Assembly: GCF_988242995.1 (NCBI RefSeq)
Contig: NZ_OZ547043.1
Direction: 5' to 3' (one strand)
Length of the DNA: 64,000 nt
The stretch's first letter is position 1. Each line of letters opens with the position of its first letter. Below, piece by piece: positions 10,836 to 32,500 of the stretch. The notes under the pieces were generated by a model. That model was not told where the DNA came from, did no database searches, and worked only from the letters and a program-made list of their open reading frames with translations. The position numbers and the translations under genes are program-made.

Positions 10836-10855
10836 AAAGCCTCCTAGGAGGCTTT
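10836..10855. terminator. Bidirectional intrinsic terminator between convergent genes
   Basis: Perfect palindrome aaagcctcctaggaggcttt flanked by T-runs on both strands; overlaps MTase stop codon. Confidence 0.6.
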
Positions 10856-11884: not shown

Positions 11885-11907
11885 TTTTCCCTCTGCATCC
11901 AGAATCA

Positions 11908-13737
11908 CTACCTAATGATACCACGGTCAAGAGCCTGAGTAATTATTTTTCTTATTTTTATAAATTCAGGCAATTCATTTTTAAGTCTTGCGGTCATCAT
12001 TTGTTGGAGGCAAAAAATTTCCTCTGCATTTACTTCTTCTTTATCATACAGGTGTTGCGCTAATAATCTTATTTGATTCTTATACAGTTCTGGATCATTA
12101 GAACTCCAGGTCTGTGAATCAATTATTTCTTTTTCACTTGGCGTAATTGCCTTTTCAATGAGTAATTGTTCGGGAGTATCAAATGGTAAATACTTCACTT
12201 TATTGAATGCATACTCAAGCACTTGCCTTTTGAGTCTATTAGATTCTTGTTCATTTTTTTTGCCATTACTACCACTGGCATTGATAATTAACTCGCAACC
12301 ATAATATTTGCACATTGTATTAACTAAATCAGCATCAGCAATTTCACTAATTCTTACTGGTTTTATTTTTTTGTTTTTATCACCATCAAGTAAAAACAAA
12401 ATATCATTGCGTTCTACCACAGCGTAACTGGGAAGATGCTTGCTTAAAATGGTCTCCGAACCACCTGGTATATAACTTACACTAAATGATAAGCTTAATC
12501 TTTCATCATTTTTAATCGCTTTATCTATAATTGCTTTAGCTAATTTATCTTCTACAATTATTGTTTTCTTGTTAATATCATGCCCTAGCTCTATAAAAGC
12601 TTCATCCGGTGCTATATTTTGAACTATTTTAGCTGTTTCACTCTCTTCATCAAAAACAAATAATTTAATGGCATCTTTGGGAAGAGTGTTCACAATAACA
12701 GGAGAATGGGTTGATATTACCACTTGATGTTTTTTCTGCTCAACAATAGAGTACAGAACATCCATCATCCTTTTTTGTGCACCAGGGTGAAGTGAAACTT
12801 CTGGTTCGTCAAGAAGAATTAATGAATTAGGTTTGGCCGAATAAATATTGAGTATTAGTGAAACTATTGCAAATTCACCACTTCCAGCAAACGCTTCTGT
12901 ATAGTTCAACTTATCAGTTGAAAGTAAAGCGGTTCCTCCTCTGGTTCCAAATAACCGATGCTCAAGAAATTTAATGACTTTATATTTTTTCCCTAATATA
13001 AATGAGACGTGCTCAACTAGTTCTGGCGCCAAGGTTATATTTTTAACAATGGTTTCCGCCCCCCAGAGTCTTAAATTACTTAGCTTTTCATCAAAAGCTT
13101 TCTTTATATATTTAGATTTGCTTCTGATATAGTCTTGCTTTGTAATTAATACACCACTCTTCTTCTTTCTTAATTTAAAATCAGAGTGATACATACATCT
13201 ATCAAATGCACTTATTTCCGATCTGAAATCTAGGAAAACCAATCCCTTCTTGATTTTTTTCCATCTGGTTGCATTACTATTAGCACCCAGATCATCCGAA
13301 ATACTCTCCATGTTATCACCAACAGATGGTCGACTTGTTTCCCAATAATCGATTGTTTTCTTGGTAGCATTGATACGTGCTTGGAGTATTTCAACTAAAC
13401 GGCCATCAGCATTTTTATATCCATATATATATCTAGGTTTAAGAGAACTGCCATCAGCAAGTTTTAGGTCAGGAAACTCATCTGTTTCAGTTGTGAACCA
13501 ATAACGAGTTATATTTTTACCATGTGGGCAACCAAATAGCGCTTTGATAACAGAACTTTTATTAGTTCCATTTTTTCCTACTAAAGCCGTTATAGGGAAC
13601 TGAAAATCGATCCTTGCATTCTGCTCTATATTTTTAAAGTATGGAAAACGGATATGTTGTATGAATGGTTCAAATTCACCGTTTTTTAACGCGCACTGGA
13701 GTGTTCGAATTTTGCTCTTGTATGCGGAAGTGCTCAT
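11908..13737 (-). CDS. OLD-family-like nuclease: N-terminal ABC-type ATPase plus C-terminal Toprim-like domain (609 aa)
   Basis: Walker A LVGKNGTNKSS; signature-like AGSGEFAIVSL; Walker B/D-loop LILLDEPEVSLHP; H-loop VISTHSP; C-terminal Toprim-like E (TIIVEDKLAK) and DxD (LFLLDGDKN); stop lies 23 bp from MTase ATG; visibly AT-rich. Confidence 0.7.
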   Translation of the reverse strand: MSTSAYKSKIRTLQCALKNGEFEPFIQHIRFPYFKNIEQNARIDFQFPITALVGKNGTNKSSVIKALFGCPHGKNITRYWFTTETDEFPDLKLADGSSLKPRYIYGYKNADGRLVEILQARINATKKTIDYWETSRPSVGDNMESISDDLGANSNATRWKKIKKGLVFLDFRSEISAFDRCMYHSDFKLRKKKSGVLITKQDYIRSKSKYIKKAFDEKLSNLRLWGAETIVKNITLAPELVEHVSFILGKKYKVIKFLEHRLFGTRGGTALLSTDKLNYTEAFAGSGEFAIVSLILNIYSAKPNSLILLDEPEVSLHPGAQKRMMDVLYSIVEQKKHQVVISTHSPVIVNTLPKDAIKLFVFDEESETAKIVQNIAPDEAFIELGHDINKKTIIVEDKLAKAIIDKAIKNDERLSLSFSVSYIPGGSETILSKHLPSYAVVERNDILFLLDGDKNKKIKPVRISEIADADLVNTMCKYYGCELIINASGSNGKKNEQESNRLKRQVLEYAFNKVKYLPFDTPEQLLIEKAITPSEKEIIDSQTWSSNDPELYKNQIRLLAQHLYDKEEVNAEEIFCLQQMMTARLKNELPEFIKIRKIITQALDRGIIR

Positions 13738-18603: not shown

Positions 18604-19064
18604 GCAGAGTAACCGCGATTATCTCCGCTCTGGTTATCTGCATCGTCGTCTGCCTGTCATGGGGTGTTAATCATTACCGTGATAACGCCATCGCCTACAA
18701 AGAACAGCGCGACAAAAATGCCAGAGAACTGAAGCTGGCGAACGCGGCAATTACTGAGATGCAGATGCGTCAGCGTGATGTTGCTGCGCTCGATGCAAAA
18801 TACACGAAGGAGTTAGCTGATGCGAAAGCTGAAAATGATGCTCTGCGTGATGATGTTGCCGCTGGTCGTCGTCGGTTGCACATCAAAGCAGTCTGTCAGT
18901 CAGTGCGTGAAGCCACCACCGCCTCCGGCGTGGATAATGCAGCCTCCCCCCGACTGGCAGACACCGCTGAACGGGATTATTTCACCCTCCGGGAACGACT
19001 GGTAATGATGCAGGCCCAACTTGAAGGTGCTCAGCAATACATAACCGAGCAGTGTTTAAAGTAA
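18600..19064 (+). CDS. Rz: Spanin inner-membrane subunit Rz
   Basis: Matches lambda Rz; start overlaps endolysin stop (ATGA). Confidence 0.9.
18820..19005 (+). CDS. Rz1: Spanin outer-membrane lipoprotein Rz1 (embedded in Rz, +1 frame)
   Basis: [23 protein letters not shown]... lipobox and proline-rich region; matches lambda Rz1. Confidence 0.85.
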
Positions 19065-19201
19065 AATCTTAACTACAATATGATTCATTTTGATGATTGT
19101 TTCATAAGGAACAGTGAAGTAAGATCTAAGAGGAGTTAAATTTTATACAGTATAATCATAATATTGCAGCAAGGTGGTTATAATTGAAAGAATATTTAGA
19201 T

Positions 19202-20659
19202 ATGAATACATCTCATGTAAGAGTTGTTACTCATATGTGTGGGTTCCTGGTTTGGCTCTATAGTCTTTCAATGTTGCCACCAATGGTTGTAGCATTGTTT
19301 TATAAAGAAAAAAGCCTGTTTGTTTTCTTTATAACTTTCGTTATATTTTTTTGCATTGGTGGCGGAGCGTGGTATACAACTAAGAAATCTGGCATTCAAT
19401 TACGTACCCGTGATGGGTTTATTATAATTGTAATGTTTTGGATTTTGTTTTCTGTTATTAGTGCATTCCCTTTATGGATTGACTCAGAACTTAATTTAAC
19501 GTTCATTGATGCTCTGTTTGAAGGGGTTTCTGGAATAACAACAACAGGAGCAACTGTAATTGATGATGTTAGTTCATTACCTCGGGCATATTTGTACTAT
19601 CGGTCACAGTTAAATTTTATAGGTGGTTTAGGAGTTATTGTTCTGGCGGTTGCTGTATTGCCATTATTGGGTATTGGTGGTGCAAAGCTTTATCAGTCAG
19701 AAATGCCGGGGCCATTTAAGGATGACAAACTCACTCCCCGCCTGGCCGATACGTCACGGACACTGTGGATAACTTATTCTTTATTAGGTATTGCTTGTAT
19801 TGTCTGTTATAGACTTGCAGGAATGCCTTTGTTTGATGCTATTTGTCACGGGATTTCCACAGTTTCGCTTGGTGGTTTCTCAACTCATAGCGAGAGTATC
19901 GGATATTTTAATAACTATTTGGTTGAGCTGGTGGCTGGTTCTTTTTCCCTGCTATCGGCTTTCAACTTCACTCTTTGGTATATTGTTATTAGCAGGAAAA
20001 CGATAAAACCTTTAATCAGAGATATTGAACTTCGTTTCTTTCTGTTAATAGCCTTAGGTGTGATCATTGTTACCTCTTTCCAGGTCTGGCATATAGGTAT
20101 GTATGACTTGCATGGAAGTTTTATTCATTCGTTTTTTCTTGCCAGCTCCATGCTCACTGATAATGGTTTAGCTACGCAGGATTATGCAAGTTGGCCCACG
20201 CACACGATAGTGTTTTTGCTGTTGTCAAGTTTCTTTGGGGGATGTATAGGTTCAACTTGTGGTGGAATTAAGTCACTTCGATTTCTTATACTTTTCAAAC
20301 AAAGCAAACACGAGATAAATCAGCTTTCTCATCCCAGAGCGTTGTTGAGTGTAAATGTAGGAGGGAAGATAGTTACAGATCGTGTAATGAGGTCTGTATG
20401 GAGTTTCTTTTTTCTTTATACTCTCTTCACGGTGTTTTTTATACTGGTGTTAAATGGTATGGGATATGATTTTCTTACATCATTTGCAACAGTGGCTGCA
20501 TGCATTAATAATATGGGATTAGGTTTTGGGGCTACTGCATCGTCATTCGGAGTGCTTAATGACATTGCAAAATGTTTAATGTGCATAGCTATGATTCTTG
20601 GTCGCCTTGAAATTTATCCTGTTATTATATTGTTTTCAGGTTTTTTTTGGCGCTCCTAA
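19202..20659 (+). CDS. trkG: Trk potassium uptake protein TrkG (Rac prophage)
   Basis: ORF 19184..20659; product from MNTSHVRVVTHMCGFLVW... matches K-12 TrkG (485 aa); start may be off by 1 because my hand indexing of the displayed sequence disagrees with the ORF track here. Confidence 0.9.
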   Translation: MNTSHVRVVTHMCGFLVWLYSLSMLPPMVVALFYKEKSLFVFFITFVIFFCIGGGAWYTTKKSGIQLRTRDGFIIIVMFWILFSVISAFPLWIDSELNLTFIDALFEGVSGITTTGATVIDDVSSLPRAYLYYRSQLNFIGGLGVIVLAVAVLPLLGIGGAKLYQSEMPGPFKDDKLTPRLADTSRTLWITYSLLGIACIVCYRLAGMPLFDAICHGISTVSLGGFSTHSESIGYFNNYLVELVAGSFSLLSAFNFTLWYIVISRKTIKPLIRDIELRFFLLIALGVIIVTSFQVWHIGMYDLHGSFIHSFFLASSMLTDNGLATQDYASWPTHTIVFLLLSSFFGGCIGSTCGGIKSLRFLILFKQSKHEINQLSHPRALLSVNVGGKIVTDRVMRSVWSFFFLYTLFTVFFILVLNGMGYDFLTSFATVAACINNMGLGFGATASSFGVLNDIAKCLMCIAMILGRLEIYPVIILFSGFFWRS

Positions 20660-20796
20660 TATATGGCTGATTTATAATTGTGAGTTTAATATTATGTTGA
20701 CTCACTCATTGATCCAATACCTAACTTTACCAGCAACACCTCCGTCCCCAGTAGCACTGGCTGCTGGGGTGCGTTTTATTCATAAAGCAAGGCTGT

Positions 20797-21588
20797 ATGA
20801 GCGAGAAATTAAAGATAGTCTATCGCCCATTACAAGAATTGTCACCGTATGCGCACAACGCCAGGACGCACAGTACTGAGCAGGTGGCACAACTGGTAGA
20901 AAGTATTAAGCAATTCGGCTGGACTAATCCGGTGCTGATTGACGAAAAGGGCGAAATTATTGCGGGTCACGGTCGTGTTATGGCGGCTGAAATGCTCAAA
21001 ATGGATTCTGTTCCGGTCATTGTTCTGTCTGGCCTGACGGATGAGCAGAAAAAGGCGTACCGCCTGGCAGATAATCGCCTGCCGATGAATGCTGGCTGGG
21101 ATGAAGATCTGTTGCGGATGGAGCTGTCGGACCTAATCAATGCTGATTTTGATGTCTCCCTGACAGGCTTCATCCCGACAGAAATTGATGAACTGTTGAC
21201 GGATGTTTTGCCCGGTACAGGAAATGAGGAGGAGCCGTATACGACGAAAATTGATACGCCTGTTTATGAGCCGTCGGGCGGTAAACCGGATATCAGTGAA
21301 CTGTACGACGATACGAAAACTCAGGAGCTGATCAGCCGGATACGTTCGGCGTCCCTTGAGCCTGATATTGAGAAATTCCTCCTGTGTGCGGCAGAACGTC
21401 ACACGGTGTTTAATTTCAGCAGAATTGCGGACTATTACGCTCACGCCCCCTCTGAAATTCAGTGTTTTTTCGAGGAGTCGGCGCTGGTGATCATTGATTA
21501 TCAGCAGGCTATTGAAAATGGATTTGTCCGGATGACGCAGCGCATGGTGGAGATCATGCATGGTGGTGAGGAGGAGGAATATGCGTGA
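20797..21588 (+). CDS. ParB-like nuclease domain protein
   Basis: 263-aa ORF MSEKLKIVYRPLQELSPYAHNARTHSTEQVAQLVESIKQFGWTNPVLID... typical ParB/Srx N-terminal domain; K-12 ynaK/ydaY look like remnants of this gene. Confidence 0.75.
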   Translation: MSEKLKIVYRPLQELSPYAHNARTHSTEQVAQLVESIKQFGWTNPVLIDEKGEIIAGHGRVMAAEMLKMDSVPVIVLSGLTDEQKKAYRLADNRLPMNAGWDEDLLRMELSDLINADFDVSLTGFIPTEIDELLTDVLPGTGNEEEPYTTKIDTPVYEPSGGKPDISELYDDTKTQELISRIRSASLEPDIEKFLLCAAERHTVFNFSRIADYYAHAPSEIQCFFEESALVIIDYQQAIENGFVRMTQRMVEIMHGGEEEEYA

Positions 21589-22513
21589 TGATTTTTGCGC
21601 CTTTATTCTGACTCACGGGCGACCGGACAAAGTTCTGACTTACCGGACGTTGCGTCGTGCTGGCTATACCGGGAAAATTTTTATCGTTGTTGATGATGAA
21701 GATAAGACACGGCATCAGTACATGGCTGAATTTGGTGAACAGGTGCTGGTGTTTTCCAAAGCCGATATCGCCAGTCGTTTTGACGAAGCCGATAATTTCT
21801 GTGACCGCCGCTCAATTTTTTACGCCCGTAATGCCTGTTTCGACCTGGCAAAACTGGTCGGGTGTAAATACTTCATTCAGCTCGATGATGATTATCACGA
21901 GTTCCAGTTTCGGGTGGATCGCAACTATGACCAGGCCTATTTTCCGATAAGGAAACTGGATGCGATCCTTTCTGAAATGCTGGCGTACTACGAATCAATA
22001 CCTGCTCTTTCCATCGCTATGTCGCAGGGCGGGGATTTTCTTGGTGACAATGGCGGCCATGCTTCGTGGGTGAAACGCAAGGCAATGAACAGCTTTATCT
22101 GTTCGGTTGATCGACCGTTCTCATTCATGGGGCGCATTAACGAGGATGTGAATACGTACACGAATCTCGGTCGCTGTGGTGAATTGTTTATGACGATCGG
22201 TGCTGTCCAGTTAGGGCAGAAACAGACGCAGAAAAACAGCGGCGGAATGACCGAGCTGTATCTGGATTCCGGAACCTACGTTAAAAGTTTTTACTCCGTC
22301 ATGTATGCGCCGTCGTGCGTAAAAATTTCACTGATGGGTGCCAGCCATAAACGCATTCACCATCAGGTCACCTGGAACAACGCTGCAGTAAAAATCCTTC
22401 ACGAAAAATACAGGAAGAAGACACCCTGCATATCAATGGGGGTGACAAATGATTCCGTATTCGAAAGTCGAGTCTCTGGCAGCGTGCCGGATGACTGCAC
22501 AACAAATCGCTGA
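21581..22513 (+). CDS. Hypothetical protein (310 aa), function unknown
   Basis: ATG 21581 after strong SD GAGGAGGAA, overlapping ParB-like stop; contains HGRPDK and LDDDY motifs; no family confidently recognised. Confidence 0.5.
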   Translation: MRDDFCAFILTHGRPDKVLTYRTLRRAGYTGKIFIVVDDEDKTRHQYMAEFGEQVLVFSKADIASRFDEADNFCDRRSIFYARNACFDLAKLVGCKYFIQLDDDYHEFQFRVDRNYDQAYFPIRKLDAILSEMLAYYESIPALSIAMSQGGDFLGDNGGHASWVKRKAMNSFICSVDRPFSFMGRINEDVNTYTNLGRCGELFMTIGAVQLGQKQTQKNSGGMTELYLDSGTYVKSFYSVMYAPSCVKISLMGASHKRIHHQVTWNNAAVKILHEKYRKKTPCISMGVTNDSVFESRVSGSVPDDCTTNR

Positions 22514-22700
22514 CGTTCTGGATGTTGATCTGAACCGACTGAAAGAAAATCGGGAAGCAATGACAGATTTTTATGCGGCCATCCGTAAGGGCAGAGCGAA
22601 AGGTGAAGCCGAGTTACGAGCGGCATTGTTTAAGCTTGCCAGAAAAGGGGATGCCTTTGCTCTGCGCGAACTACTCAGGGTGGATAAAAATCAGGACTAA
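22449..22700 (+). CDS. Small putative DNA-binding protein (possible packaging accessory)
   Basis: 83-aa ORF with GGGGGTG SD; overlaps previous gene by 65 nt so the start is uncertain. Confidence 0.35.
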   Translation: MIPYSKVESLAACRMTAQQIADVLDVDLNRLKENREAMTDFYAAIRKGRAKGEAELRAALFKLARKGDAFALRELLRVDKNQD

Positions 22701-22703
22701 CTG

Positions 22704-23798
22704 ATGAGCAGACCGGACTGGGGGGCGTTGCAGCAGGAGTATATTGCTGAATACACCCGCTCCGGTATATCTCCGGTGGCATGGTGTGAAGCAAGGGGAC
22801 TGAATTACGCAACAGCCCGTCGTTACATCAAAAAAACTCCGAAAAATGCGCAGACAGAAATGTGCAAAACTGCGCAAAAAAGTGCGCAGAAAAAATCTGC
22901 GCAGACTGCACAAAAGCGGAACGAAAAATCTCAGGAAAAAAAGCCAGTATTCGATGCGGGCCTGAATGAGGGCGACGCGGAGGAATTTTCGTTCTGTCCC
23001 GATGAATTCGGCATTTCTGACCAGCAGGCTAAGTTTGCGATGCTTGTTGCTCAGGGTAAAAAGCCGACAGAGGCGTACCGACTAGCCGGTTATGAGGGGC
23101 AAGGTGCGACAGCTAACAGCAACGCCAGTCGTATGCTTAGAAATGCCAGGGTTTTTCGCGCTATCAGCTACTTCCGCAATCAGTACCAGAAACGCTATAC
23201 CGCAGACCTGGATTTACTAGTGAGTCAGTTGATGGCTATTGTCCTGGCCGACCCCAATCAGCTTGCACAATTTCGCCGTGTTAACTGCCGTTATTGCTGG
23301 GGCGAGAATCATCTCTACCAGTGGCGCGATATAGCAGAATTCGACAAGGCAGCGGCGCAGGCTTCCAGAGATGGCAAACCCGAACCGGAATATGGAGGCC
23401 TCGGCTTTGTTGATAACGCCATACCCAATCCGGACTGCCCGAAGTGCTGCGGTGAGGGAACGGGACAGCTTTATATGGCTGATACCACTCTGCTTGATGG
23501 GGATGCGCGGCAATTATATGCAGGGGCAAAATTCGGAAAATTCGGCGTTGAGATCCTGCTGGAGGATAAGGCTGCCGCCCGGCGTGAATTGTTGCGTTTG
23601 TTTTCTGCTGGCGGGGCTTTATGTGCAGATAAACGGCTACAGGAACTGGAAATTGAACGGCGCAGAATGGAAAACCAGAAGCTGCGCAAAGAGATCGAAA
23701 CGGTGGAAGATAATGAACATCCCCAGCCTGTGGCGATCAATATTAATGTGGTTGATGCCAGAGTAAGGAGTGATGAAGATGATCTCTCCGACGCTTAA
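22704..23798 (+). CDS. Terminase small subunit (putative)
   Basis: 364-aa ORF directly upstream of terminase large subunit; N-terminal HTH-like region. Confidence 0.55.
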   Translation: MSRPDWGALQQEYIAEYTRSGISPVAWCEARGLNYATARRYIKKTPKNAQTEMCKTAQKSAQKKSAQTAQKRNEKSQEKKPVFDAGLNEGDAEEFSFCPDEFGISDQQAKFAMLVAQGKKPTEAYRLAGYEGQGATANSNASRMLRNARVFRAISYFRNQYQKRYTADLDLLVSQLMAIVLADPNQLAQFRRVNCRYCWGENHLYQWRDIAEFDKAAAQASRDGKPEPEYGGLGFVDNAIPNPDCPKCCGEGTGQLYMADTTLLDGDARQLYAGAKFGKFGVEILLEDKAAARRELLRLFSAGGALCADKRLQELEIERRRMENQKLRKEIETVEDNEHPQPVAININVVDARVRSDEDDLSDA

Positions 23799-25080
23799 TG
23801 TGCCTCAGGCGCGATTTCTTTCAATGCCCCATAAATTTAAAGCCTATATTGCTGGTTTTGGCTCGGGCAAAACATGGGTTGGGTGTAGCGGCATATGCAA
23901 GGGGATTTGGGAGCATCCAGGTATAAATCAGGGATATTTTGCGCCAACGTATCCCCAAATTCGCGATATTTTTTACCCTACAGTGGAAGAAGTTGCTGCT
24001 GACTGGGGATTGAACGTAAAAATTAATGAGGGAAATAAAGAGGTTCACTTTTATTACGGACGCCAGTATCGGGGAACCACTATCTGCAGATCGATGGAGA
24101 AGCCACAAACGATCGTCGGTTTCAAAATTGGTAATGCGTTGGTGGATGAACTGGACATTTTGCCGAAGGAAAAAGCCAGAACGGCGTGGCGCAAGATAAT
24201 TGCACGTATGCGTTATAAGATTGATGGACTTCGCAACGGTATTGACGTTACAACCACGCCGGAAGGATTCAAATTTGTCTACGAGCAGTTTGTTAAAGCC
24301 GTGCGTGAAAAAACAGAGCTGGCCTCACTGTATGGTCTGGTGCAGGCATCTACTTTCGATAATGAAAAGAACCTGCCAGCAGATTACATTCCTTCGCTTC
24401 TTGAATCATACCCTCCAGAGCTGATTAAAGCCTATCTTCGAGGACAGTTTACTAACCTGACAAGTGGTACTGTTTACCATCAGTTTGACCGGAAACTGAA
24501 TAATTGCGAAGAAGTGGAGCAGCCAGGGGAGCCGATTTATATTGGGATGGATTTTAACGTTGGAAAGATGGCGGGAATCGTCCATGTGCTGCGTTTGGGG
24601 CTTCCATGTGCGGTAACTGAAATCATCAATGCCTACGATACGCCGGATATGATCCGCATCATTAAAGAACGCTTCTGGCTGTATGATGGGAATGATTACC
24701 GGAAAGTGAGGGAAATTTATATTTATCCAGATGCTTCCGGGGATTCCAGAAAATCAAGTAACGCAAGTACGACGGATATAGCCCAGCTTAAGCAGGCTGG
24801 TTTTAACGTTGTGGTGAACAGCTCGAACCCGCCAGTAAAAGATCGCGTTAACTCAATGAATGCAATGTTCTGCAATGCCAATGGTGAGCGTCGCTATAAA
24901 GTTAATGTGAAGCGTTGCCCGTTATATGCCGAATCTCTGGAGCAACAGGTCTGGGATGAGAAGGGGGAGCCTGATAAAAAATCTGGCAATGATCACCCGA
25001 ATGATGCCGGAGGTTATTTCATCGTTAAGCAATTCCCTATTGTCAAACCGACCGGAAGAGTCACATCACTTCGGATTTAA
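23770..25080 (+). CDS. Terminase large subunit
   Basis: 436-aa ORF; Walker A-like AGFGSGKT near N-terminus; position before portal. Confidence 0.7.
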   Translation: MMKMISPTLNVPQARFLSMPHKFKAYIAGFGSGKTWVGCSGICKGIWEHPGINQGYFAPTYPQIRDIFYPTVEEVAADWGLNVKINEGNKEVHFYYGRQYRGTTICRSMEKPQTIVGFKIGNALVDELDILPKEKARTAWRKIIARMRYKIDGLRNGIDVTTTPEGFKFVYEQFVKAVREKTELASLYGLVQASTFDNEKNLPADYIPSLLESYPPELIKAYLRGQFTNLTSGTVYHQFDRKLNNCEEVEQPGEPIYIGMDFNVGKMAGIVHVLRLGLPCAVTEIINAYDTPDMIRIIKERFWLYDGNDYRKVREIYIYPDASGDSRKSSNASTTDIAQLKQAGFNVVVNSSNPPVKDRVNSMNAMFCNANGERRYKVNVKRCPLYAESLEQQVWDEKGEPDKKSGNDHPNDAGGYFIVKQFPIVKPTGRVTSLRI

Positions 25081-25082
25081 TT

Positions 25083-26489
25083 ATGGCTGATATATCAACA
25101 CCCAACCTCGACTATAACGATATGCTGGAGGCGTGGGATATTAACGACGCACTGATGGGCGGTACGCTTGAAATGCGCAGGCAGGGGGAAAATTATCTCC
25201 CAAAATGGCCTAACGAAGATGAAGACGCTTATAAAAAACGCCTGTCTGTGGCTACGCTACTTCCTGTGTATGAAGAAAGCATCAAGCAAAATATTGGGCG
25301 CATATTTGCAGAGCCGACAGTATTGAGTGAGGAAACGCCGGCAAAAATCAGGGAATATGCAGAAAATATCGACATGGAGGGGAGCCGACTGGATGTGTGG
25401 GCGCAGCAATTTTTCAGCCTCGCATTTCAGTATGGTGTGGCACATGCGCTGGTGGACTATCCACGAACGGATATGAAAGAGATTCGGACAAAAGCCGATG
25501 AAAACGCGACCGGTGGTCGTCCGTACGTTACGATGCTGAATCCACGCCAGGTTATTGGATGGAAATCGAAAGTTGAAAAAGGGAAAGTTGTTCTCACTGA
25601 TTTGCGTATAAAAGAGGTCATCATTATTGATGGTGATGATTTCGGGCAGAAGAAGGTGGAGCAGATCCGCCATATTATGCCCCGTCGAGTTGAAATTTAT
25701 CGACGTAGCGAAGGCACTAATGGCGAATCTGTCTGGACGCTTCATGAGTCATGGAATACCAGCCGTGATGATATTCCTCTGGTAACACTGTACACGAAGA
25801 AAACAGGATTTATGCGTGGTACACCGCCATTGCTTAATCTTGGCTTGCTGAATATCAAGCACTGGCAAAGCCAGAGCGAGCAGGACAATATTCTTCATGT
25901 TGCCCGCGTTCCATTGCTGGTGGCCTACGGGCTGGACAGGAATGAAGAACTGACGGTTGGTGCATCCACCGCTACGATTTTTGAGGACAGAACAAAAAAT
26001 GGCCTCGAATATGTTGAACATAGTGGCGCAGCGATAGAATCTGGCGAAACATCACTTGAGAAGCTGGAAAATCAGATGCGTCATGCCGGCGCTAAACTTC
26101 TGCGTGCTGAAAATACATCCACCAAATCTGTTGATCAGACTAATGAAGAGCGAATGCAGGAAAACTCGCCGCTTTATACAATGGCGAACTCCCTCGAAGA
26201 TGCTCTCGATAATATTCTCCAGATAATGGCGGAATGGATCGGAGAGAGTTGCGGTGGCAATGTGGATGTGCGCACTGAACTGGATGTATCTGCCCAGGTG
26301 TTTGACTCATCCTCCGCGCTGGCTGTTCAGTCATTGCGTCAGGGCGGTGATATACGTCAGATTGATGCGGTTCGGGTGTTGCAGGCGTTGAAATTTATCG
26401 ATCAGGATTCCCGTCCAGAGGAAGTGATCGATGAATTAAAAAATCAGAGTGTAATGCTGATGGAAATCAATGATGCAAACCGTGAATGA
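25083..26489 (+). CDS. Portal protein (putative)
   Basis: 468-aa ORF immediately after terminase large subunit. Confidence 0.55.
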   Translation: MADISTPNLDYNDMLEAWDINDALMGGTLEMRRQGENYLPKWPNEDEDAYKKRLSVATLLPVYEESIKQNIGRIFAEPTVLSEETPAKIREYAENIDMEGSRLDVWAQQFFSLAFQYGVAHALVDYPRTDMKEIRTKADENATGGRPYVTMLNPRQVIGWKSKVEKGKVVLTDLRIKEVIIIDGDDFGQKKVEQIRHIMPRRVEIYRRSEGTNGESVWTLHESWNTSRDDIPLVTLYTKKTGFMRGTPPLLNLGLLNIKHWQSQSEQDNILHVARVPLLVAYGLDRNEELTVGASTATIFEDRTKNGLEYVEHSGAAIESGETSLEKLENQMRHAGAKLLRAENTSTKSVDQTNEERMQENSPLYTMANSLEDALDNILQIMAEWIGESCGGNVDVRTELDVSAQVFDSSSALAVQSLRQGGDIRQIDAVRVLQALKFIDQDSRPEEVIDELKNQSVMLMEINDANRE

Positions 26490-27585
26490 ACGGCTGCGTG
26501 ATGAATCAATTGCTCATGCAGTCTGGATATCCCGCTATAGCACTGGCGTGGCTGCCAGAATGGTGAAAATACTGAATGACAGCGATGCGGAACTTACTGC
26601 TCGCCTGCTGATAGCACTGGACAGCCTCGATCCAGGTAATTTTACCGTTAAGCGCCTGGAGTCACTTCTGGCGAGCGTCAGAGAGGTTAACCGCACTGCT
26701 ATTAACAGCATGTTTACCAGTCTCTCCGGAGAGCTGAACGAGCTGGCAATTTATGAGGCTGGTTATCAGTTAAGTCTGTTTGATTCTATGCTACCTGATT
26801 TTGTTGCTGATGTTCACCCTCTGGTTGGTATCTCTCCTGATGCACTTTATGCCGCTGCAATGGCGCGACCATTCCAGGGACGACTGCTCAGTGAGTGGGC
26901 CTCAGATCTTGAGGCGGATCGGCTCAGACGCATAACAAATACAGTGCGTCAGGGTTTTTTGCTGGGGGATACCAATGAGCAGATCGCAAGAAAAATTCGG
27001 GGACATGTCAGTAAGGGATTTCAGGATGGTGCATTGCAGATGAGCCGGGCTAATGCGGCCAGCATTGCAAAAACAGCGGTTGGACATCTTGCTGCTACTG
27101 CCCGTGAGAGTTTTGCCAGCGCGAATAATGATTTGATTAAGGGTAAGCAATGGTTATCAACGCTTGATAATCGTACTACGCCACAATGTCGAATCAGGGA
27201 TCGCCTCAAATATACGCTGAATAATAAACCTGTAGGTCACAGCGTGCCTTATTTGCAGGGGCCGGGAAAAATTCATTTCTGCTGCCGCTCAACGGAAACG
27301 TTCATTCTGAAATCAGCGAAGGAACTGGGTATTGATGTTCGCGATATTTCCCCGGCTGAGCGGGCCAGCATGGATGGCGTGGTGGCCGGAGATACAACCT
27401 ACAGGGAATGGTTTTTGCGTCAGCCTTACACCAGACAAAAACAGATTGTGGGGGAAACCCGAGCAAAGCTGATTCGGGATGGTGGTATGTCGCCAGATGA
27501 ATTTTACACCGATAAAGGCGAATGGCTGACGCTGAAGCAGCTCCGTGAGCGTGATGCACAGGTATTCAGAAAAGCAGGGATTTAA
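26470..27585 (+). CDS. Head morphogenesis protein (putative minor head protein)
   Basis: 371-aa ORF following portal; assignment by order and size. Confidence 0.45.
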   Translation: MMQTVNERLRDESIAHAVWISRYSTGVAARMVKILNDSDAELTARLLIALDSLDPGNFTVKRLESLLASVREVNRTAINSMFTSLSGELNELAIYEAGYQLSLFDSMLPDFVADVHPLVGISPDALYAAAMARPFQGRLLSEWASDLEADRLRRITNTVRQGFLLGDTNEQIARKIRGHVSKGFQDGALQMSRANAASIAKTAVGHLAATARESFASANNDLIKGKQWLSTLDNRTTPQCRIRDRLKYTLNNKPVGHSVPYLQGPGKIHFCCRSTETFILKSAKELGIDVRDISPAERASMDGVVAGDTTYREWFLRQPYTRQKQIVGETRAKLIRDGGMSPDEFYTDKGEWLTLKQLRERDAQVFRKAGI

Positions 27586-27604
27586 ATAAATCATTTATTA
27601 CAAC

Positions 27605-27630
27605 AGGCTACCTTCGGGTGGCCTTTTTTA
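27605..27630 (+). terminator. Intrinsic terminator-like hairpin
   Basis: aggctaccttcgggtggcct followed by ttttttatt. Confidence 0.4.
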
Positions 27631-27689
27631 TTGCTGCGATCCGGATGGTGAGCAGCGTAACTGTCGGAAGACTTAAACCAGGTACTAAT

Positions 27690-28454
27690 ATGAAACTGAA
27701 AACGGTCGAGATTAACGGAAAACAATACGCAGAAATTGATACTGCTGGCCTGCCAGTTTATGTGCACGACGATGGTAAAGAAATTGGCTTCGATGCACCG
27801 CTGGCGACAAAAAAAATTACAGAGCTTAATGGCGAGGCAAAAAATCATCGCCTGGCTAAAGAAGCTGCAGAGGAAAAACTGGCTAAGTTTGCCGCTATCG
27901 AAGACCCGAAGAAGGCGATCGAGGCACTGGAAATGCTGTCAAAAATCGACCAGAAAAAGCTGCTCGATGCGGGACAGGTTGACCAGGTTAAGGCAGAAAT
28001 TACGAAAAATTTTCAGCAGCAATTAGATGAAGAAAAGCAACGCTCTCAGATGCTGGAGAAGCAGCTTTACGATTCTATGATTGGCGGTAGTTTTGCGGGT
28101 TCAAAATATATTGCCGATAAAATTGCGATCCCGGCAGATTTATTACAAGCCCGCTTCGGGCAGGCATTCAAAGTGGAAGAAGGGAGGATCGTTGCTTATG
28201 ACGCTTCCGGCAACAAAATTTATTCCCGCGCGAAGCCTGGCGAACTGGCGCAGTTTGATGAGGCGCTGGAGTTCCTTGTCGAAAATTACCCTCAGAAAGA
28301 CTACATCCTGAAAGCCAGTGGCAACAATGGCGGCGGCTCCCGTCCGACACAGCATGATATTGGTCAGAAAACGATGAAACGCTCTGCTTTTGATGCACTG
28401 GATGTTGCAGGTAAGCAAAACGCATTGAAAGACGGTATCACAATCGTTGATTAA
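27690..28454 (+). CDS. Scaffolding protein (putative)
   Basis: Acidic, coiled-coil-like sequence immediately upstream of capsid gene; start taken at MKLKTV; ORF track begins 27618. Confidence 0.45.
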   Translation: MKLKTVEINGKQYAEIDTAGLPVYVHDDGKEIGFDAPLATKKITELNGEAKNHRLAKEAAEEKLAKFAAIEDPKKAIEALEMLSKIDQKKLLDAGQVDQVKAEITKNFQQQLDEEKQRSQMLEKQLYDSMIGGSFAGSKYIADKIAIPADLLQARFGQAFKVEEGRIVAYDASGNKIYSRAKPGELAQFDEALEFLVENYPQKDYILKASGNNGGGSRPTQHDIGQKTMKRSAFDALDVAGKQNALKDGITIVD

Positions 28455-28552
28455 CACATTTGTCAGCTTCCGGATGGGAGCTGGTGTCAGGGCTGGATAG
28501 CTCATTACTCCATCTATTCACAATTACGCAAATTTTTAAGGAATATTTAATT

Positions 28553-29692
28553 ATGGCTGGAAATACCCTGACCGGGTTGATCCCGACTATTTATACCGCC
28601 CTGGATGTTGTATCCCGTGAGCAGGTAGGTTTTATCCCTGCGGTAGCAAAAAACGCAAAAGCTGACGCCGCAGCAAAAGATCAGACGGTAACCGCGCCAG
28701 TTGCGCCTGAGGCGAAAACCGAAGATATCGTACCGGGGCCGTCAGCTCCGAATACCGGTGATCAAAATATTGGCACTGTTGATGTAAAAATTACTAAATC
28801 CAAAATGGCACCGGTTAAATGGAATGGTGAAGAACAACTGGCTCTTGGCCCTTCAGGGACTTACAACACCATTCTGGCTGATCAGTTCAAGCAGGCTTTT
28901 CGCGCCCTTGCAAACGAGGTTGAGGCTGATCTTGGTGCGTTGTATTTCGGTGCTTCCCGCGCCGTGGGAACCGCAGGGACAACGCCGTTTGGTGTTAAAG
29001 ATGATCTTTCTGATGCTGCTCTGGCTCGTCAGGTTCTGGAGGATAACGGCGCACCGACAACCGATCTGCAGATGGTGCTTGGCTCCACTGCCATTGCTAA
29101 TTTGCGCGGAAAACAGTCTGTATTGTTTAAAGTGAATGAATCCGGCACTGAACAGCTACTGCGTGAGGGCGTGTTGGGGCGTCTGGAGGGATTCAATATT
29201 CACAGTTCGGCAGGTGTGAAACGAGCGCCAAAGGTTGCTGCAACTGGTTATCTCGTGAATGGAGAGAAAAAAGAAGGCGATGTTCTTATTTCCATTGATA
29301 CTGGTTCGGGGAGTATTTCTGCAGGTCAGATTGTTACGTTCGCTGGTGATCCGAATCAGTATGTTGTGGCAGCAGCGACCAGCAATCTGATTACTCTTGC
29401 AGCGCCCGGACTGCGTCAGGATCTGGCCGATGATACTGCCATCACAGTTGTTGGGGCCTTTACTGCAAATATGGCGTTTGATCGCAACGCGTTTCTGCTG
29501 GCATCCCGTACTCCGGCAATGCCGGAAGGTGGCGATAATGCTGATGATGTAATGAATGTTACGGACCCGATTTCAGGGATTACGTTCCAGATTGCACTGT
29601 ATCGTCAGTATCGCCAGGTGCGCTATGAAGTTGGACTGGCATGGGGTGTTTCATCAGTGAAGCCGGCACATGGTTGTCTGATTCTTGGTTAA
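28553..29692 (+). CDS. Major capsid protein (putative)
   Basis: 379 aa from MAGNTLTGLIPTIYTAL... with AAGGAA SD; followed by a strong terminator. Confidence 0.6.
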   Translation: MAGNTLTGLIPTIYTALDVVSREQVGFIPAVAKNAKADAAAKDQTVTAPVAPEAKTEDIVPGPSAPNTGDQNIGTVDVKITKSKMAPVKWNGEEQLALGPSGTYNTILADQFKQAFRALANEVEADLGALYFGASRAVGTAGTTPFGVKDDLSDAALARQVLEDNGAPTTDLQMVLGSTAIANLRGKQSVLFKVNESGTEQLLREGVLGRLEGFNIHSSAGVKRAPKVAATGYLVNGEKKEGDVLISIDTGSGSISAGQIVTFAGDPNQYVVAAATSNLITLAAPGLRQDLADDTAITVVGAFTANMAFDRNAFLLASRTPAMPEGGDNADDVMNVTDPISGITFQIALYRQYRQVRYEVGLAWGVSSVKPAHGCLILG

Positions 29693-29702
29693 ACATTCAA
29701 AC

Positions 29703-29722
29703 GGGGCTTCGGCCCCATTTTT
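29703..29722 (+). terminator. Intrinsic terminator after capsid gene
   Basis: ggggcttcggcccc hairpin followed by attttt. Confidence 0.7.
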
Positions 29723-29734
29723 AATGGAGGGCAT

Positions 29735-29911
29735 ATGGCCGGATTAACTAAAGAGCAAAGAGCACAGCGTGAAGCCGCACAAAAAACGCAAATTGAGTTA
29801 GTGGTTATGGTGACCGATTATCAGATGTTTCCCGGCGCACCAACTATCGCTAATGTTCATCCTGATGAAGTTGACAACTGGAAGGCTATGGGCTGGAAAA
29901 CTCAGGAGTAA
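29735..29911 (+). CDS. Hypothetical small head-region protein (58 aa)
   Basis: Hand-found ORF MAGLTKEQRAQREAAQKTQIELVVMVTDYQMF... with GGAGGG SD; below ORF-track cutoff. Confidence 0.4.
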   Translation: MAGLTKEQRAQREAAQKTQIELVVMVTDYQMFPGAPTIANVHPDEVDNWKAMGWKTQE

Positions 29912-29914
29912 CAC

Positions 29915-30310
29915 ATGATCACTTACGTGACCTGTGATGACGTTGATAATGCGTTTGGGAACGCCTGGACGAGTGAGAACGCTAAAAATAAAGCTGTTTT
30001 AATGGCTAATGCCTGGCTTAATGGCTTCAACCTGAAAATTAACCCATCCCGTATTCCGGAAGAGGTAAAACTTGCGGGAGCATATGCAGCCAGAATTGCC
30101 TCATTCGGTAAGTTGTTTCAGCAGAAAAATGATTCTGGCGTTGTTATCAGTAAAGCCGTGTCGGCTGACGGGGTCAGTGTATCGAAATCATTTGCTGAGT
30201 TGCCAGCAAACAGCACTGTATTGCTTGAACCCGATTTACAGCTTGCGATAGCACTGCTGAAACCGTACGGACTTAGTCGCTCACAAGTCAGGGTTGTGAG
30301 GGGGGGATAA
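29915..30310 (+). CDS. Head-tail connector/adaptor protein (putative)
   Basis: 131-aa ORF in tightly packed head-to-tail gene series with overlapping stops and starts. Confidence 0.4.
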   Translation: MITYVTCDDVDNAFGNAWTSENAKNKAVLMANAWLNGFNLKINPSRIPEEVKLAGAYAARIASFGKLFQQKNDSGVVISKAVSADGVSVSKSFAELPANSTVLLEPDLQLAIALLKPYGLSRSQVRVVRGG

Positions 30311-30693
30311 TGGGGCTTCGTGAAGAGATTCAGTCAGAGGTTGCCGCTGCTTTTGATGAGGATTTAGCGGACGCCGTGAGTGATTTTTCTGGTTCTTACG
30401 TTACGCACCGGCACTGGGATCCTGTGACGGAAACTGGCGGCGAATCCACCGCAATCTATACCGGGCGAGGCGTGTTGACACGTTATAAGCTGGGCAGAAT
30501 TGATGGGATTAATATTTTGCATGGTGACCTTAAATTAACCGCTCTGGTATGCGAGGTTACGGATAAACCCGCTGTCGACCATATTATTGAGATTTATGAT
30601 CCTGTATTAAGGCAGTTACAACGATACGAGGTAATTACAGCGAGTGTAGATCCTTCCGCATCAGTTTACTCTATCCAGTTAAGGAGAGCGTAA
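30310..30693 (+). CDS. Head-tail joining protein (putative)
   Basis: 127-aa ORF, translationally coupled to neighbours. Confidence 0.4.
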   Translation: MGLREEIQSEVAAAFDEDLADAVSDFSGSYVTHRHWDPVTETGGESTAIYTGRGVLTRYKLGRIDGINILHGDLKLTALVCEVTDKPAVDHIIEIYDPVLRQLQRYEVITASVDPSASVYSIQLRRA

Positions 30694-31074
30694 ATGGCAA
30701 AGGCATGGGATATAGAACCGTCAATATTTGCCGGGATGATTGAGGAAGATGTGGGGCTGAAAATTCGCTACATCGCTATGCAGATTCTTACTGCTATTGA
30801 TATTGCTGCTCCGGTTGATACCGGACGTTTCAGAAATAACAACCTGGTGTCGTTACAGCATCCCGATTTTGGTATATCTGATAACGTGGATCCGAACGGT
30901 ACGATTGCGGTTCAGCGTGGGATCGGGGTTATTTCGAAAGCTGCAAATTACGGAGTTATTTATATCCAGAATAACCTTCCTTATGCAGAGGCTCTTGAAA
31001 ACGGTCATTCACAACAAGCGCCAACTGGCGTGTATGCCAACGCTTTTCATGGTGTTTTACAGGCTTACAAATGA
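30694..31074 (+). CDS. Head-tail joining/tail completion protein (putative)
   Basis: 126-aa ORF in head-tail series. Confidence 0.4.
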   Translation: MAKAWDIEPSIFAGMIEEDVGLKIRYIAMQILTAIDIAAPVDTGRFRNNNLVSLQHPDFGISDNVDPNGTIAVQRGIGVISKAANYGVIYIQNNLPYAEALENGHSQQAPTGVYANAFHGVLQAYK

Positions 31075-31463
31075 CGTTTACTGAAATCAGAAATACGGTT
31101 ATTTCCAGAATGACGGCACAGACGATTATTGATGGAAAAGACGTATTGTATCCGAACGCGCCAACGTTCGATCCTTCCGGTAAGTTAATCTGGGCGCGGT
31201 TAAGTAATATTCCCGGGCAGGCTGGAGTTAATGAAATTGGCGCGGGGCCGATTGTTTATCGCACGGGGATAATCATTATTCAGTTATTTGTCCCCGCAGG
31301 TTCTGGTTCAAAACTCATTACTGAGACAGCCGATAAATTGCGGGAACTGTTTGAGTTTCAGGATGACGATCGTCTCAGTTACCAGGCTGTTTCCTCAATA
31401 GCCGTTGGCGAAAAGAATGGCTGGTTCCAGCTTAATCTTCAAATTCCATATCGCGCGCTCTAG
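31071..31463 (+). CDS. Tail completion protein (putative)
   Basis: 130-aa ORF immediately upstream of major tail gene. Confidence 0.4.
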   Translation: MTFTEIRNTVISRMTAQTIIDGKDVLYPNAPTFDPSGKLIWARLSNIPGQAGVNEIGAGPIVYRTGIIIIQLFVPAGSGSKLITETADKLRELFEFQDDDRLSYQAVSSIAVGEKNGWFQLNLQIPYRAL

Positions 31464-31489
31464 CGCAATTAATGACATAGGAGGCTCCT

Positions 31490-32452: not shown

Positions 32453-32500
32453 TTTTCCGTTATTCCTCCTGTGGTACTGCCCTACAGGGGGACGCATTGA

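Follow-up and report, generated by a model that had tools for sequence, protein, structure and literature searches.

A late gene pair of a Rac-like Escherichia coli prophage encodes a predicted TAGT-family glycosyltransferase and its conserved partner protein, a candidate system for phage DNA glycosylation

What is the function of two overlapping late genes that stand, both intact, directly before the packaging genes in a Rac-like prophage of Escherichia coli? The pair, ORF A and ORF B, was analysed within a window of 64,000 bp, which is the whole stretch of contig NZ_OZ547043.1 under study, and the relevant features are given below in window coordinates.

20746-20769, + strand: terminator-like hairpin of 10 pairs, 7 of them G-C, followed by a T-rich tail
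20797-21588, + strand: ORF A, partner gene (intact ynaK), 263 aa, pI 4.5
20797-21201, + strand: ParB/Srx N-terminal (CTPase-fold) domain, aa 1-135 of ORF A
21232-21585, + strand: conserved C-terminal partner domain, aa 146-263 of ORF A
21570-21577, + strand: Shine-Dalgarno sequence GGAGGAGG of the TAGT gene, within the 3' end of ORF A
21581-22513, + strand: ORF B, predicted TAGT-family GT-A glycosyltransferase gene, 310 aa; PF20691, phrog_842
21620-21622, 21884-21892 and 22142-22147, + strand: predicted catalytic residues R14, D102-D104 and E188-D189 of ORF B, invariant alignment columns
22449-22700, + strand: small ORF overlapping the 3' end of the TAGT gene; phrog_309, E 8e-23; PGAP start at 22491
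22704-23798, + strand: terminase small subunit gene, directly 3' of the cassette (context, outside the cassette)
23770-25080, + strand: terminase large subunit gene (context, outside the cassette)
21051-32610, no strand assigned: segment of 11,560 bp deleted in E. coli K-12 Rac, as shown by a blastn comparison of the window with the MG1655 locus

The open frame of ORF B begins at 21560, but the gene itself starts with the ATG in position 21581, since homologues begin with MR[DEN]DF at this point and PGAP annotates the same start. The Shine-Dalgarno sequence lies 3 nt 5' of this ATG, and the ATG (21581-21583) and the TGA of ORF A (21586-21588) are both contained in ATGCGTGA, giving an overlap of 8 nt. 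The TAGT gene is thus translationally coupled to the partner gene, and the intact, coupled pair of a 263-aa ParB/Srx-like gene and a 310-aa gene upstream of the terminase genes is present as originally predicted, with the terminase genes following directly after ORF B. The small ORF at the 3' end of the TAGT gene, similar to a portion of a small terminase subunit, is the first of the packaging genes. On the other side, the hairpin is located 3' of the trkG moron and 27 nt 5' of ORF A. No good sigma-70-like site was found between the hairpin and ORF A, and we infer that the pair is read from an antiterminated late transcript.

The product of ORF B matches the Pfam family PF20691 (TAGT) over aa 8-222 with 122.3 bits (cut-off 27.5; E 3.4e-35) and phrog_842 with an E value of 6e-104, and PGAP names it a 'GREB1-related protein'. 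This family, said to have been defined by Iyer et al. in 2013, includes the base-J glucosyltransferase, the second glucosyltransferase of T2/T6 and GREB1. The two motifs that had been noticed but left unassigned in the original prediction, HGRPDK (aa 12-17) and LDDDY (aa 101-105), are real family signatures: R14, D102-D104 and Y105 are invariant in the family, and the first two of these are catalytic residues of the R...DDD...ED set. This set is intact in ORF B, with R14, D102-D104, E188 and D189 invariant in the alignments of homologues; its third motif is EDV, as against EDY/F in the R...DDD...ED(Y/F) pattern. The AF2 model has a pLDDT of 86-98 over most of the TAGT part, while the last ~22 aa form a non-conserved tail of low model confidence. 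Foldseek matched the model to GT-A enzymes in the PDB and, at a TMt of 0.83, to models of viral TAGT proteins. Among the closest solved folds are those of the peptide glycosyltransferases ThuS and SunS, and the GT-A/GT2-like fold is common to K4CP, SpsA, GpgS and AvpGT; no membrane-spanning helix is predicted. A sequence search of the PDB gave no match, and neither NCBIfam nor PADLOC had a model matching the protein. The family match and the modelled fold together identify ORF B as a predicted TAGT-family GT-A glycosyltransferase, and the original guess that the 310-aa protein might be a glycosyltransferase-like DNA-modification enzyme is supported within the limits of sequence, fold and context.

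ORF A consists of two parts. Its N-terminal domain has the ParB_N fold, matching the Pfam model with 29.3 bits (cut-off 26.3; E 9e-7), and the protein matches PHROG 620 with an E value of 1e-90. Of the motifs for nucleotide binding and hydrolysis (GERR of box II, Asn of box III), GHGR (aa 57-60) is found where canonical ParB has GERR, the Arg being retained and the catalytic Glu replaced by His, so NTP hydrolysis by ORF A is uncertain; N21 and N93 are conserved, and other members read GN[GMHQ]x. The closest relatives of this ParB_N domain are those fused to DNA methyltransferases (aa 10-144: phrog_498, E 9e-51; PADLOC MTase_II, E 1.5e-38), although only the N-domain matches these fusions and ORF A has no methyltransferase domain. 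Neither Pfam nor the predicted model revealed an HTH domain, the score against TIGR00180 (38) is below the cut-off of 58, and no ParA is annotated in a near-identical prophage. The protein had been called a ParB-like nuclease, a label that should be dropped: nothing indicating nuclease activity was seen, and 'nuclease' is merely a historical name of the ParB_N domain. The C-terminal 118 aa gave no Pfam and no fold match. This stretch includes the new element of the locus, a highly conserved domain of ~100 aa for which there is no Pfam model, with the motifs YTxKIxxPxYEPxG, AAxRHxVF and SALVIIDxxxAIENG and the invariant residues Y148, P155, Y157, R201, F205, Y214, E226, D234 and G242.

The association of the two genes was surveyed in 169 related viral loci. 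Wherever the sequence allowed, a C-domain gene was found directly upstream of the TAGT gene or, in 7 loci, at no more than about 3 kb from it. A gene encoding both ParB_N and the C-domain abuts or overlaps the TAGT gene in 144 loci, a C-domain-only ORF adjoins it in 10 (about 7 apparently genuine stand-alone genes and 3 apparent frameshift splits), the partner is situated 0.4-3 kb upstream in 6, and the remainder are contig-edge cases, apart from one locus (L108) in which all three domains are fused in one ORF. The latter is the only genuine fusion, the single other ParB-TAGT fusion, met among 382 proteins, being a start-site artefact. A C-domain-only partner is also seen in the Vibrio 191-kb phages. 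The ParB_N domain is present in about 90% of partners and dispensable in some lineages, and in the contexts examined the C-domain is sometimes seen apart from ParB_N but always together with TAGT. The constant partner of the TAGT enzyme is the C-domain of ORF A and not ParB_N, a point missed in the original prediction. The two proteins differ in charge (pI ~4.5 for the partner and ~8.7 for TAGT). They were modelled as an artificial covalent fusion with a paired alignment, in which the interface was judged from the change in pLDDT alone. Values for partner residues 231-250 rose from 66/56 alone to 93/90 in the fusion model, SALVIID becoming a strand, and residues 228-255 are predicted to form a strand and a helix only when TAGT is present.

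The cassette is distributed widely in bacterial and archaeal viruses, namely those of Firmicutes, Actinobacteria, Proteobacteria and haloarchaea, including temperate phages of E. coli, Salmonella, Klebsiella and Lactobacillus, and among complete E. coli genomes about one in six carries it. It is placed upstream of at least five types of terminase, a position conserved in one archaeal virus as well. In large phages it belongs to the replication module, far from the structural genes; phage contigs of ~140 kb carry a stand-alone C-domain gene and TAGT between PolA/beta-clamp and RecA/clamp-loader genes. Domains fused to the cassette or encoded next to it include a second TAGT, a SAM methyltransferase, a sulfotransferase, a P-loop kinase-like domain and radical SAM enzymes, the latter adjacent in 6 of 79 representative loci used for the neighbour survey. 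No genes from outside phage modules recurred in the neighbourhoods examined. The prophage of the window also carries a C5 cytosine methyltransferase, which is not linked to the cassette, because close relatives that keep the cassette do not have it.

Comparison with E. coli K-12 explains the reduced state of the locus in Rac. The K-12 deletion takes most of ORF A, the whole TAGT gene and the terminase, portal, head and tail-tube genes, and its junction creates the ynaK and ydaY stubs. The pair had been proposed as the intact ancestor of both. This holds for ynaK, a 5' stump of ORF A identical to its first 254 nt. It fails for ydaY, derived from a tail-region ORF on the far side of the deletion (window 32501-32962); intact relatives carry ydaY as a gene of its own, located between those for the tail tube and the tape measure, which rules it out as a remnant of ORF B.

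The TAGT family reportedly owes its name to a context that includes a TET/JBP dioxygenase or some other supplier of 5hmC or 5hmU, and no such context was found here. The annotation of the near-identical prophage and the window-specific genes include no TET/JBP or thymidylate-synthase-like gene, the ~45-kb prophage contains no oxygenase or hydroxymethylase, and no TET/JBP or hydroxymethylase is among the recurrent neighbour clusters of the 79 loci. Likewise, no family making 5hmC or 5hmU is among the 25 families listed of the 63 Pfam families matched by 148 upstream neighbour proteins. To our knowledge, all characterised acceptors of the TAGT family are hydroxyl groups (of 5hmU, 5hmC, glucosyl-5hmC and protein Ser/Thr). 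Since neither 5hmC nor 5hmU has a source here, only a canonical or host-methylated base, or some other position in DNA, would be left as acceptor. It is conceivable, though rather doubtful, that the C-domain and TAGT together transfer sugar straight to ordinary, unhydroxylated DNA, for instance to an exocyclic amine or elsewhere on a base that is canonical or methylated by Dam/Dcm. The small C-domain would then make an O-glycosyltransferase scaffold accept unhydroxylated DNA, a chemistry without precedent.

On balance the cassette is probably, if only by a little, a two-subunit phage glycosyltransferase that adds sugar to phage DNA after replication and before packaging. In such a system the acidic C-domain, as the fusion model suggests, may dock onto the basic TAGT enzyme and supply recognition or activation of the acceptor, while the CTPase-fold ParB_N domain, by analogy with ParB-dependent thymine dioxygenases and ParB-methyltransferase fusions, could load or hold the complex on double-stranded DNA. 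Late Q-antiterminated transcription would express the pair together with the terminase, so that progeny genomes would be modified before encapsidation, and the modification would presumably blunt host nucleases.

A protein acceptor is unlikely, whether TAGT were to O-glycosylate its own partner at Tyr148 or Tyr157 in a glycogenin-like manner, or a packaging or virion protein. It would agree with GREB1, a member of the family that O-GlcNAcylates a protein (PMC7968844), with ThuS and SunS among the solved-fold matches, with the invariant tyrosines lying in the poorly structured YTxKIxxPxYEP segment of low-to-moderate model confidence, and with the packaging genes adjoining the cassette; the kinase-like, sulfotransferase and methyltransferase tailoring enzymes suit any glycan and are compatible with this target too. 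However, such an acceptor fits poorly with the replication-module position in large phages and with a DNA-clamp-type ParB_N in most partners. The region of Y157 is fairly confident even without TAGT (pLDDT 74), which suggests a structural role, and at locus L005 the virion-glycosylation genes are separate GT2 genes following the capsid gene. Quite improbable, in turn, is classical TAGT chemistry on 5hmC, 5hmU, 5-hydroxycytosine or an attached sugar that an unlinked or unrecognised enzyme supplies or that a superinfecting hmC phage brings in its DNA; in the latter event the cassette would serve exclusion or defence and not self-protection. Every characterised DNA-acting TAGT uses hydroxylated or sugar acceptors (PMC13390438, PMC13216743, 10.1101/2023.12.21.572611), and the last of these, a preprint, raises the idea of prophage glycosyltransferases acting on invading genomes. 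The C5 cytosine methyltransferase of the prophage and the radical SAM enzymes at a few loci point the same way, but the methyltransferase is missing from close relatives with the cassette and no oxygenase or hydroxymethylase is seen in the prophage or recurs in its relatives. The late-operon position and the presence in virulent large phages suit a lysogen-expressed defence gene poorly, and Aeromonas phage 65 has a T4-like TAGT homologue with no C-domain partner, so the partnered clade is functionally distinct.

A cell-envelope glycan, as in seroconversion, or a small molecule or nucleotide is a very improbable target, even though the fold is shared with polysaccharide and small-molecule enzymes (K4CP, SpsA, GpgS, AvpGT) and glycan pathways often involve fusions with sulfotransferases and methyltransferases. 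In most cases the obligate partner is joined to a ParB DNA-clamp fold, and the neighbourhoods hold no recurrent genes from outside phage modules. A seroconversion glycosyltransferase in particular was rejected, since the model has no membrane helix and the packaging/replication position is conserved even in an archaeal virus, whose envelope differs. Finally, the two genes might be unrelated neighbours, ORF A being a partition- or nuclease-type ParB for the maintenance or packaging of the prophage, as historical annotations such as 'chromosome (plasmid) partitioning protein' and 'ParB-like nuclease' would have it, and the glycosyltransferase an adjacent moron. This is strongly disfavoured and has next to no probability: the genes abut or overlap at most loci and are fused once, the C-domain is tied to TAGT independently of ParB_N, and a partition or nuclease role was rejected given the absence of an HTH and of an annotated ParA and the integrated state of the prophage.

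Many phages have a solitary TAGT gene, as do 288 of 753 TAGT-bearing phage genomes (PMC13216743), and these genes are acknowledged as unexplained. The present analysis indicates that one large clade of them was never really solitary, a small, conserved and previously undescribed partner domain being always present, usually fused to a ParB DNA-clamp fold and placed where DNA is replicated or packaged. A literature search found no paper on the ParB+TAGT cassette, on intact ynaK or on the L. delbrueckii phages carrying the cassette. If the product is glycosylated DNA, common temperate phages would possess a hypermodification independent of any hydroxymethyl precursor, with consequences for the evasion of restriction and CRISPR, for targeting by type IV restriction, for the sequencing of induced phages and for phage engineering. 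The results also give a lead on the function of the K-12 y-gene ynaK, and the system, only 1.7 kb in size, is directly testable in K-12, which is without the cassette.

Several known systems resemble the cassette in part. ORF A does not show the combination of HTH, parS and ParA that characterises canonical ParABS ParB. GREB1, which O-GlcNAcylates the oestrogen receptor (PMC7968844), shares the TAGT family with ORF B but is an animal/eukaryotic multidomain protein. The beta-glucosyl-HMC-alpha-glucosyltransferase of T2/T6, which adds a second glucose to alpha-glucosyl-5hmC (PMC13390438, PMC13216743), is likewise a phage GT-A enzyme of PF20691 and PHROG 842 acting post-replication, but it requires a dCMP hydroxymethylase and an alpha-glucosyltransferase, neither of which is present here, and T4-like TAGT homologues are only 22-24% identical to ORF B. 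Kinetoplastid JGT and the metavirome 5hmC GT-A enzymes associated with 5mYOX/C5-MT act on DNA (10.1101/2023.12.21.572611) and share the GT-A fold and the R...DDD...ED pattern; they differ in having the third motif EDY/F and in receiving 5hmC or 5hmU from a neighbouring TET/JBP dioxygenase. For a ParB acting as activator of a DNA-modifying enzyme on double-stranded DNA, the precedent is 5mYOX176/ParB176 (PMC13229309), where a ParB with a nucleotide-binding domain and a non-HTH C-terminal domain is encoded beside the enzyme; that enzyme is an Fe/2OG dioxygenase in place of a glycosyltransferase, and in some lineages of the present cassette the C-domain serves as partner by itself. Closest to ORF A in its N-domain (phrog_498) are the fusions of ParB_N with N6/N4 DNA methyltransferases that occur in prophages (PMC12704722), in comparison with which ORF A has a novel C-domain and a separate glycosyltransferase instead of the methyltransferase.

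A Rac-like lambdoid prophage of E. coli occupies window positions 1 to ~43,500, with recET at the left, followed by Q, the lysis genes, a trkG moron and the structural genes. The features considered here are as follows.

10844-11908, minus strand: C5 cytosine methyltransferase gene of the window's prophage
19184-20659: trkG moron, between the lysis genes and the ORF A-ORF B cassette
20797-21588: ORF A, 263 aa, the partner gene
21581 (ATG) to 22513: ORF B, 310 aa, the TAGT-family glycosyltransferase gene

The predicted gene pair was confirmed, as were the motifs HGRPDK (ORF B aa 12-17) and LDDDY (aa 101-105). The ORF B frame opens at 21560 in the ORF listing, but its true start is the ATG at 21581, since homologues begin MR[DEN]DF there and the PGAP start is identical. 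The sequence GGAGGAGG lies upstream of this ATG, at 21570-21577, and the start of ORF B and the stop of ORF A both fall within ATGCGTGA. The trkG region (19000-20700) has a markedly low G+C content (0.33-0.41 vs ~0.48 in the surroundings) and a strong terminator-like hairpin 3' of trkG (20746-20769), a classic moron signature. No good promoter was found 5' of ORF A in the window sequence, which together with this hairpin makes it likely that the cassette is read from the antiterminated late transcript. A two-gene insert at 10844-13737 (minus strand), missing from the close relative L001, comprises the C5 cytosine methyltransferase gene (Pfam E 5e-61; PADLOC MTase_II/DruM-like) and, overlapping it, a gene for a 609-aa ABC/OLD-type ATPase (AAA_21/AAA_15) with best PADLOC matches to HEC-04, ATPase-Toprim_I-B, AriA and PtuA; it is probably a defence or restriction-modification-like moron. 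An IS200-like Y1 transposase ORF (3719-4228, plus strand; Y1_Tnp E 7e-37) has inserted into the early-left region and coincides with an alignment gap relative to L001 (window ~3627-4322).

The original prediction left ORF B unassigned. However, it matches the Pfam family PF20691 (TET-Associated Glycosyltransferase, TAGT) with 122 bits (cut-off 27.5), as well as phrog_842 (E 6e-104); PGAP names it 'GREB1-related protein'. Residues R14, D102-D104, E188 and D189 are invariant in family alignments and correspond to the published GT-A active site R...DDD...ED(Y/F) (10.1101/2023.12.21.572611). The structure prediction proposed earlier as a check for a glycosyltransferase-like fold gave a confident AlphaFold model of the TAGT part, whose structural matches include PDB entries of GT-A enzymes and, at TMt 0.83, models of viral TAGTs. 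By its conserved residues and fold, ORF B is a GT-A TAGT whose set of catalytic residues is intact. The C-terminal ~22-28 aa of the E. coli TAGT (window 22428-22513) are missing from homologues, have pLDDT below 50 in the model and overlap the 5' end of the following ORF, which starts at 22449 or 22491; this tail may be a mere result of the overlapping gene arrangement.

ORF A encodes two domains. Its ParB_N domain carries GHGR at the site of the canonical ParB GERR, and no HTH was found in the protein; the nearest sequence matches of this domain are ParB domains that form fusions with phage DNA methyltransferases (phrog_498 E 9e-51; PADLOC MTase_II E 1.5e-38). The best-conserved part is not the ParB domain but the C-domain (residues ~146-245), whose motifs are YTxKIxxPxYEPxG, AAxRHxVF and SALVIIDxxxAIENG. 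Among sequences from proteobacterial, Lactobacillus, Nocardia and haloarchaeal viruses, residues Y148, P155, Y157, R201, F205, Y214, E226, D234 and G242 do not vary. Searches revealed neither a Pfam model nor a structural neighbour for the C-domain, and a profile search retrieved 3,024 proteins, the best matches being stand-alone proteins of ~130 aa.

The survey covered 169 fetched loci encoding a TAGT of the ORF B clade. A ParB_N+C gene abuts or overlaps the TAGT gene in 144 of them. A C-domain-only ORF adjoins it in 10; in ~7 of these it encodes a genuine stand-alone protein of 120-145 aa, and 3 look like frameshift splits. In 6 loci the partner lies 0.4-3 kb upstream. In one locus, L108 (9287-10855), ParB_N, C-domain and TAGT share a single ORF; the remainder are contig-edge cases. 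The partner is also C-only in Vibrio 191-kb phages (L010). The T4-like Aeromonas phage 65 encodes a distant TAGT homologue that lacks a C-domain partner. Together with the C-domain profile, these data identify the C-domain, rather than ParB_N, as the obligatory partner of TAGT in this clade. The L108 joint reads ...KRFLK-MRDDF..., and the ORF may be a natural Rosetta-stone fusion or may result from a sequencing frameshift. Some phages carry dual cassettes, one C-only+TAGT and one ParB_N-type+TAGT, or as many as three TAGT paralogues (L094 9583-10867 and 13101-15234; L162 9649-14020; L123 8741-10858), which suggests multi-sugar glycans.

When ORF A was modelled alone, the N- and C-domains were confident, and the SALVIID motif and beyond were poor (pLDDT 66 for residues 231-240 and 56 for 241-250). 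In a head-to-tail fusion of both proteins, modelled with an alignment of 27 natural gene pairs, the same residues reach pLDDT 93 and 90, 231-234 becoming a strand and 235-254 a helix (pTM 0.66). The median pI values, 4.5 and 8.7, make the partner acidic and the TAGT basic. This gain in pLDDT, the opposite charges and the single-ORF arrangement of L108 indirectly support a complex of the two proteins.

The match between MG1655 and the window ends at 21050 and starts again at 32611; the genes for TAGT, terminase, portal, head and tail tube are lost in the 11,560-bp gap. The view that the pair is the intact ancestor of ynaK and ydaY therefore holds for ynaK, an 87-aa 5' stump of ORF A, but not for ydaY, which derives from an ORF at 32501-32962 and is annotated by PGAP in intact relatives as a separate gene between the tail tube and tape-measure genes. 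In many E. coli proteins the N-terminal 150-275 aa of TAGT are linked to tail-protein domains, indicating that K-12-like deletions recur. In many E. coli database proteins (P0005, P0008, P0021, P0034-P0036, P0043, P0194, P0227 and others), the leading 60-90% of TAGT or the leading ~165 aa of ORF A, at near-100% identity, runs into tail, Lom or terminase domains; internal deletions of the K-12 kind, recurring in Rac-like prophages, would explain them. In L001 (strain E21), PGAP marks ynaK at 20001-20258 as an incomplete pseudogene, an annotation artefact that comes from naming after the truncated K-12 protein, since the full 263-aa ORF is intact at 20001-20792.

Of 5,426 complete E. coli genomes, 888 carry the whole cassette and 1,579 part of it; it is also present in 10 induced-phage records. 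Relatives occur in prophages of Salmonella, Klebsiella, Serratia, Pantoea and Yersinia, in Lactobacillus phages phi jlb1, c5, LL-Ku and phiLdb, in Nocardia phage NTR1 and in haloarchaeal virus HHTV-2. Across 79 clusters (85% identity) it lies between replication/regulatory and packaging genes. One of four TerL clusters is found within 7 kb in 51 of the 65 loci with enough downstream sequence, and most others have further TerL types, including GpA-type. On ~140-kb contigs, a stand-alone C-domain and one or two TAGT genes are flanked by PolA/beta-clamp and dUTPase/RecA/clamp-loader genes. The cassette is thus placed in DNA-replication and packaging modules.

Some relatives have glycan-tailoring additions, among them a second or third TAGT and domains fused to TAGT. 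These fusions join TAGT to a P-loop kinase-like N-domain (P0271, P0306, P0318; Walker A GxxxxGKS, no significant Pfam match), class-I SAM methyltransferases (P0248, P0250, P0286), Sulfotransfer_2 (P0285) or a second TAGT-like domain (P0266, P0268). A radical SAM enzyme (~320 aa, CxxxCxxC) directly adjoins the ParB-TAGT cassette in 6 of the 79 clusters, and also a P-loop-TAGT fusion (L124, L126, L147, L156, L162, L167, L170); it may tailor the sugar or make the acceptor. Two Glycos_transf_2 genes just 3' of the major capsid gene, in a phage also carrying the cassette (L005 15837-16894; L006 8659-9716), are possibly separate virion-glycosylation genes.

Characterised TAGT-family enzymes use hydroxyl groups as acceptors (PMC13390438, PMC13216743, 10.1101/2023.12.21.572611, PMC7968844): 5hmU for JGT and 5hmC for metavirome GT-A enzymes (10.1101/2023.12.21.572611), glucosyl-5hmC for the T2/T6 enzyme (PMC13390438, PMC13216743) and protein Ser/Thr for GREB1 (PMC7968844). 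No TET/JBP dioxygenase, dCMP/dUMP hydroxymethylase or similar enzyme was found in the annotation of a near-identical prophage, among window-specific genes or in recurrent neighbour clusters. Neither TET/JBP nor a hydroxymethylase appeared among the 25 listed of 63 Pfam families matched by 148 distinct upstream neighbours, a census that leaves room for a rare single occurrence. Within this coverage, a hydroxymethyl-base pathway is absent alongside the cassette. The C5 cytosine methyltransferase of the window's prophage is missing in close relatives that keep the cassette, and 5mC provides no nucleophile.

Classical TAGT chemistry, whether the acceptor comes from elsewhere or is foreign hmC DNA, would agree with the characterised enzymes and is unlikely beside this missing pathway. 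Protein glycosylation, with GREB1 as a family precedent and the partner's invariant tyrosines as conceivable self-glycosylation sites, is rather unlikely for a cassette that lies in the replication module of ~140-kb contigs. Envelope or small-molecule glycosylation is very improbable for a cassette whose place in packaging or replication modules is conserved. The obligate genetic coupling of TAGT to the C-domain leaves hardly any likelihood that ORF A and ORF B are unrelated neighbours.

The TAGT and ParB_N families and the association of ParB with DNA modification are already known, and solitary TAGTs were previously noted as unexplained (PMC13216743). No description was found in the accessible literature of the C-domain as a constant partner, of its stand-alone, ParB-fused and TAGT-fused forms, or of the systematic lack of a precursor pathway for this cassette, which is directly testable in K-12. 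In the proposed mechanism, which as a whole is considered somewhat probable, the C-domain would bind TAGT and give acceptor recognition or activation, and ParB_N, where present, would act as an NTP-gated clamp that holds the complex on dsDNA; the pair would be made late and progeny DNA modified before packaging. Direct attack on canonical DNA, if true, would be new chemistry and is put forward tentatively. The clamp role of ParB_N would resemble that of ParB176, which works with its thymine dioxygenase on dsDNA (PMC13229309), and that of the ParB domain in ParB-methyltransferase fusions (PMC12704722).
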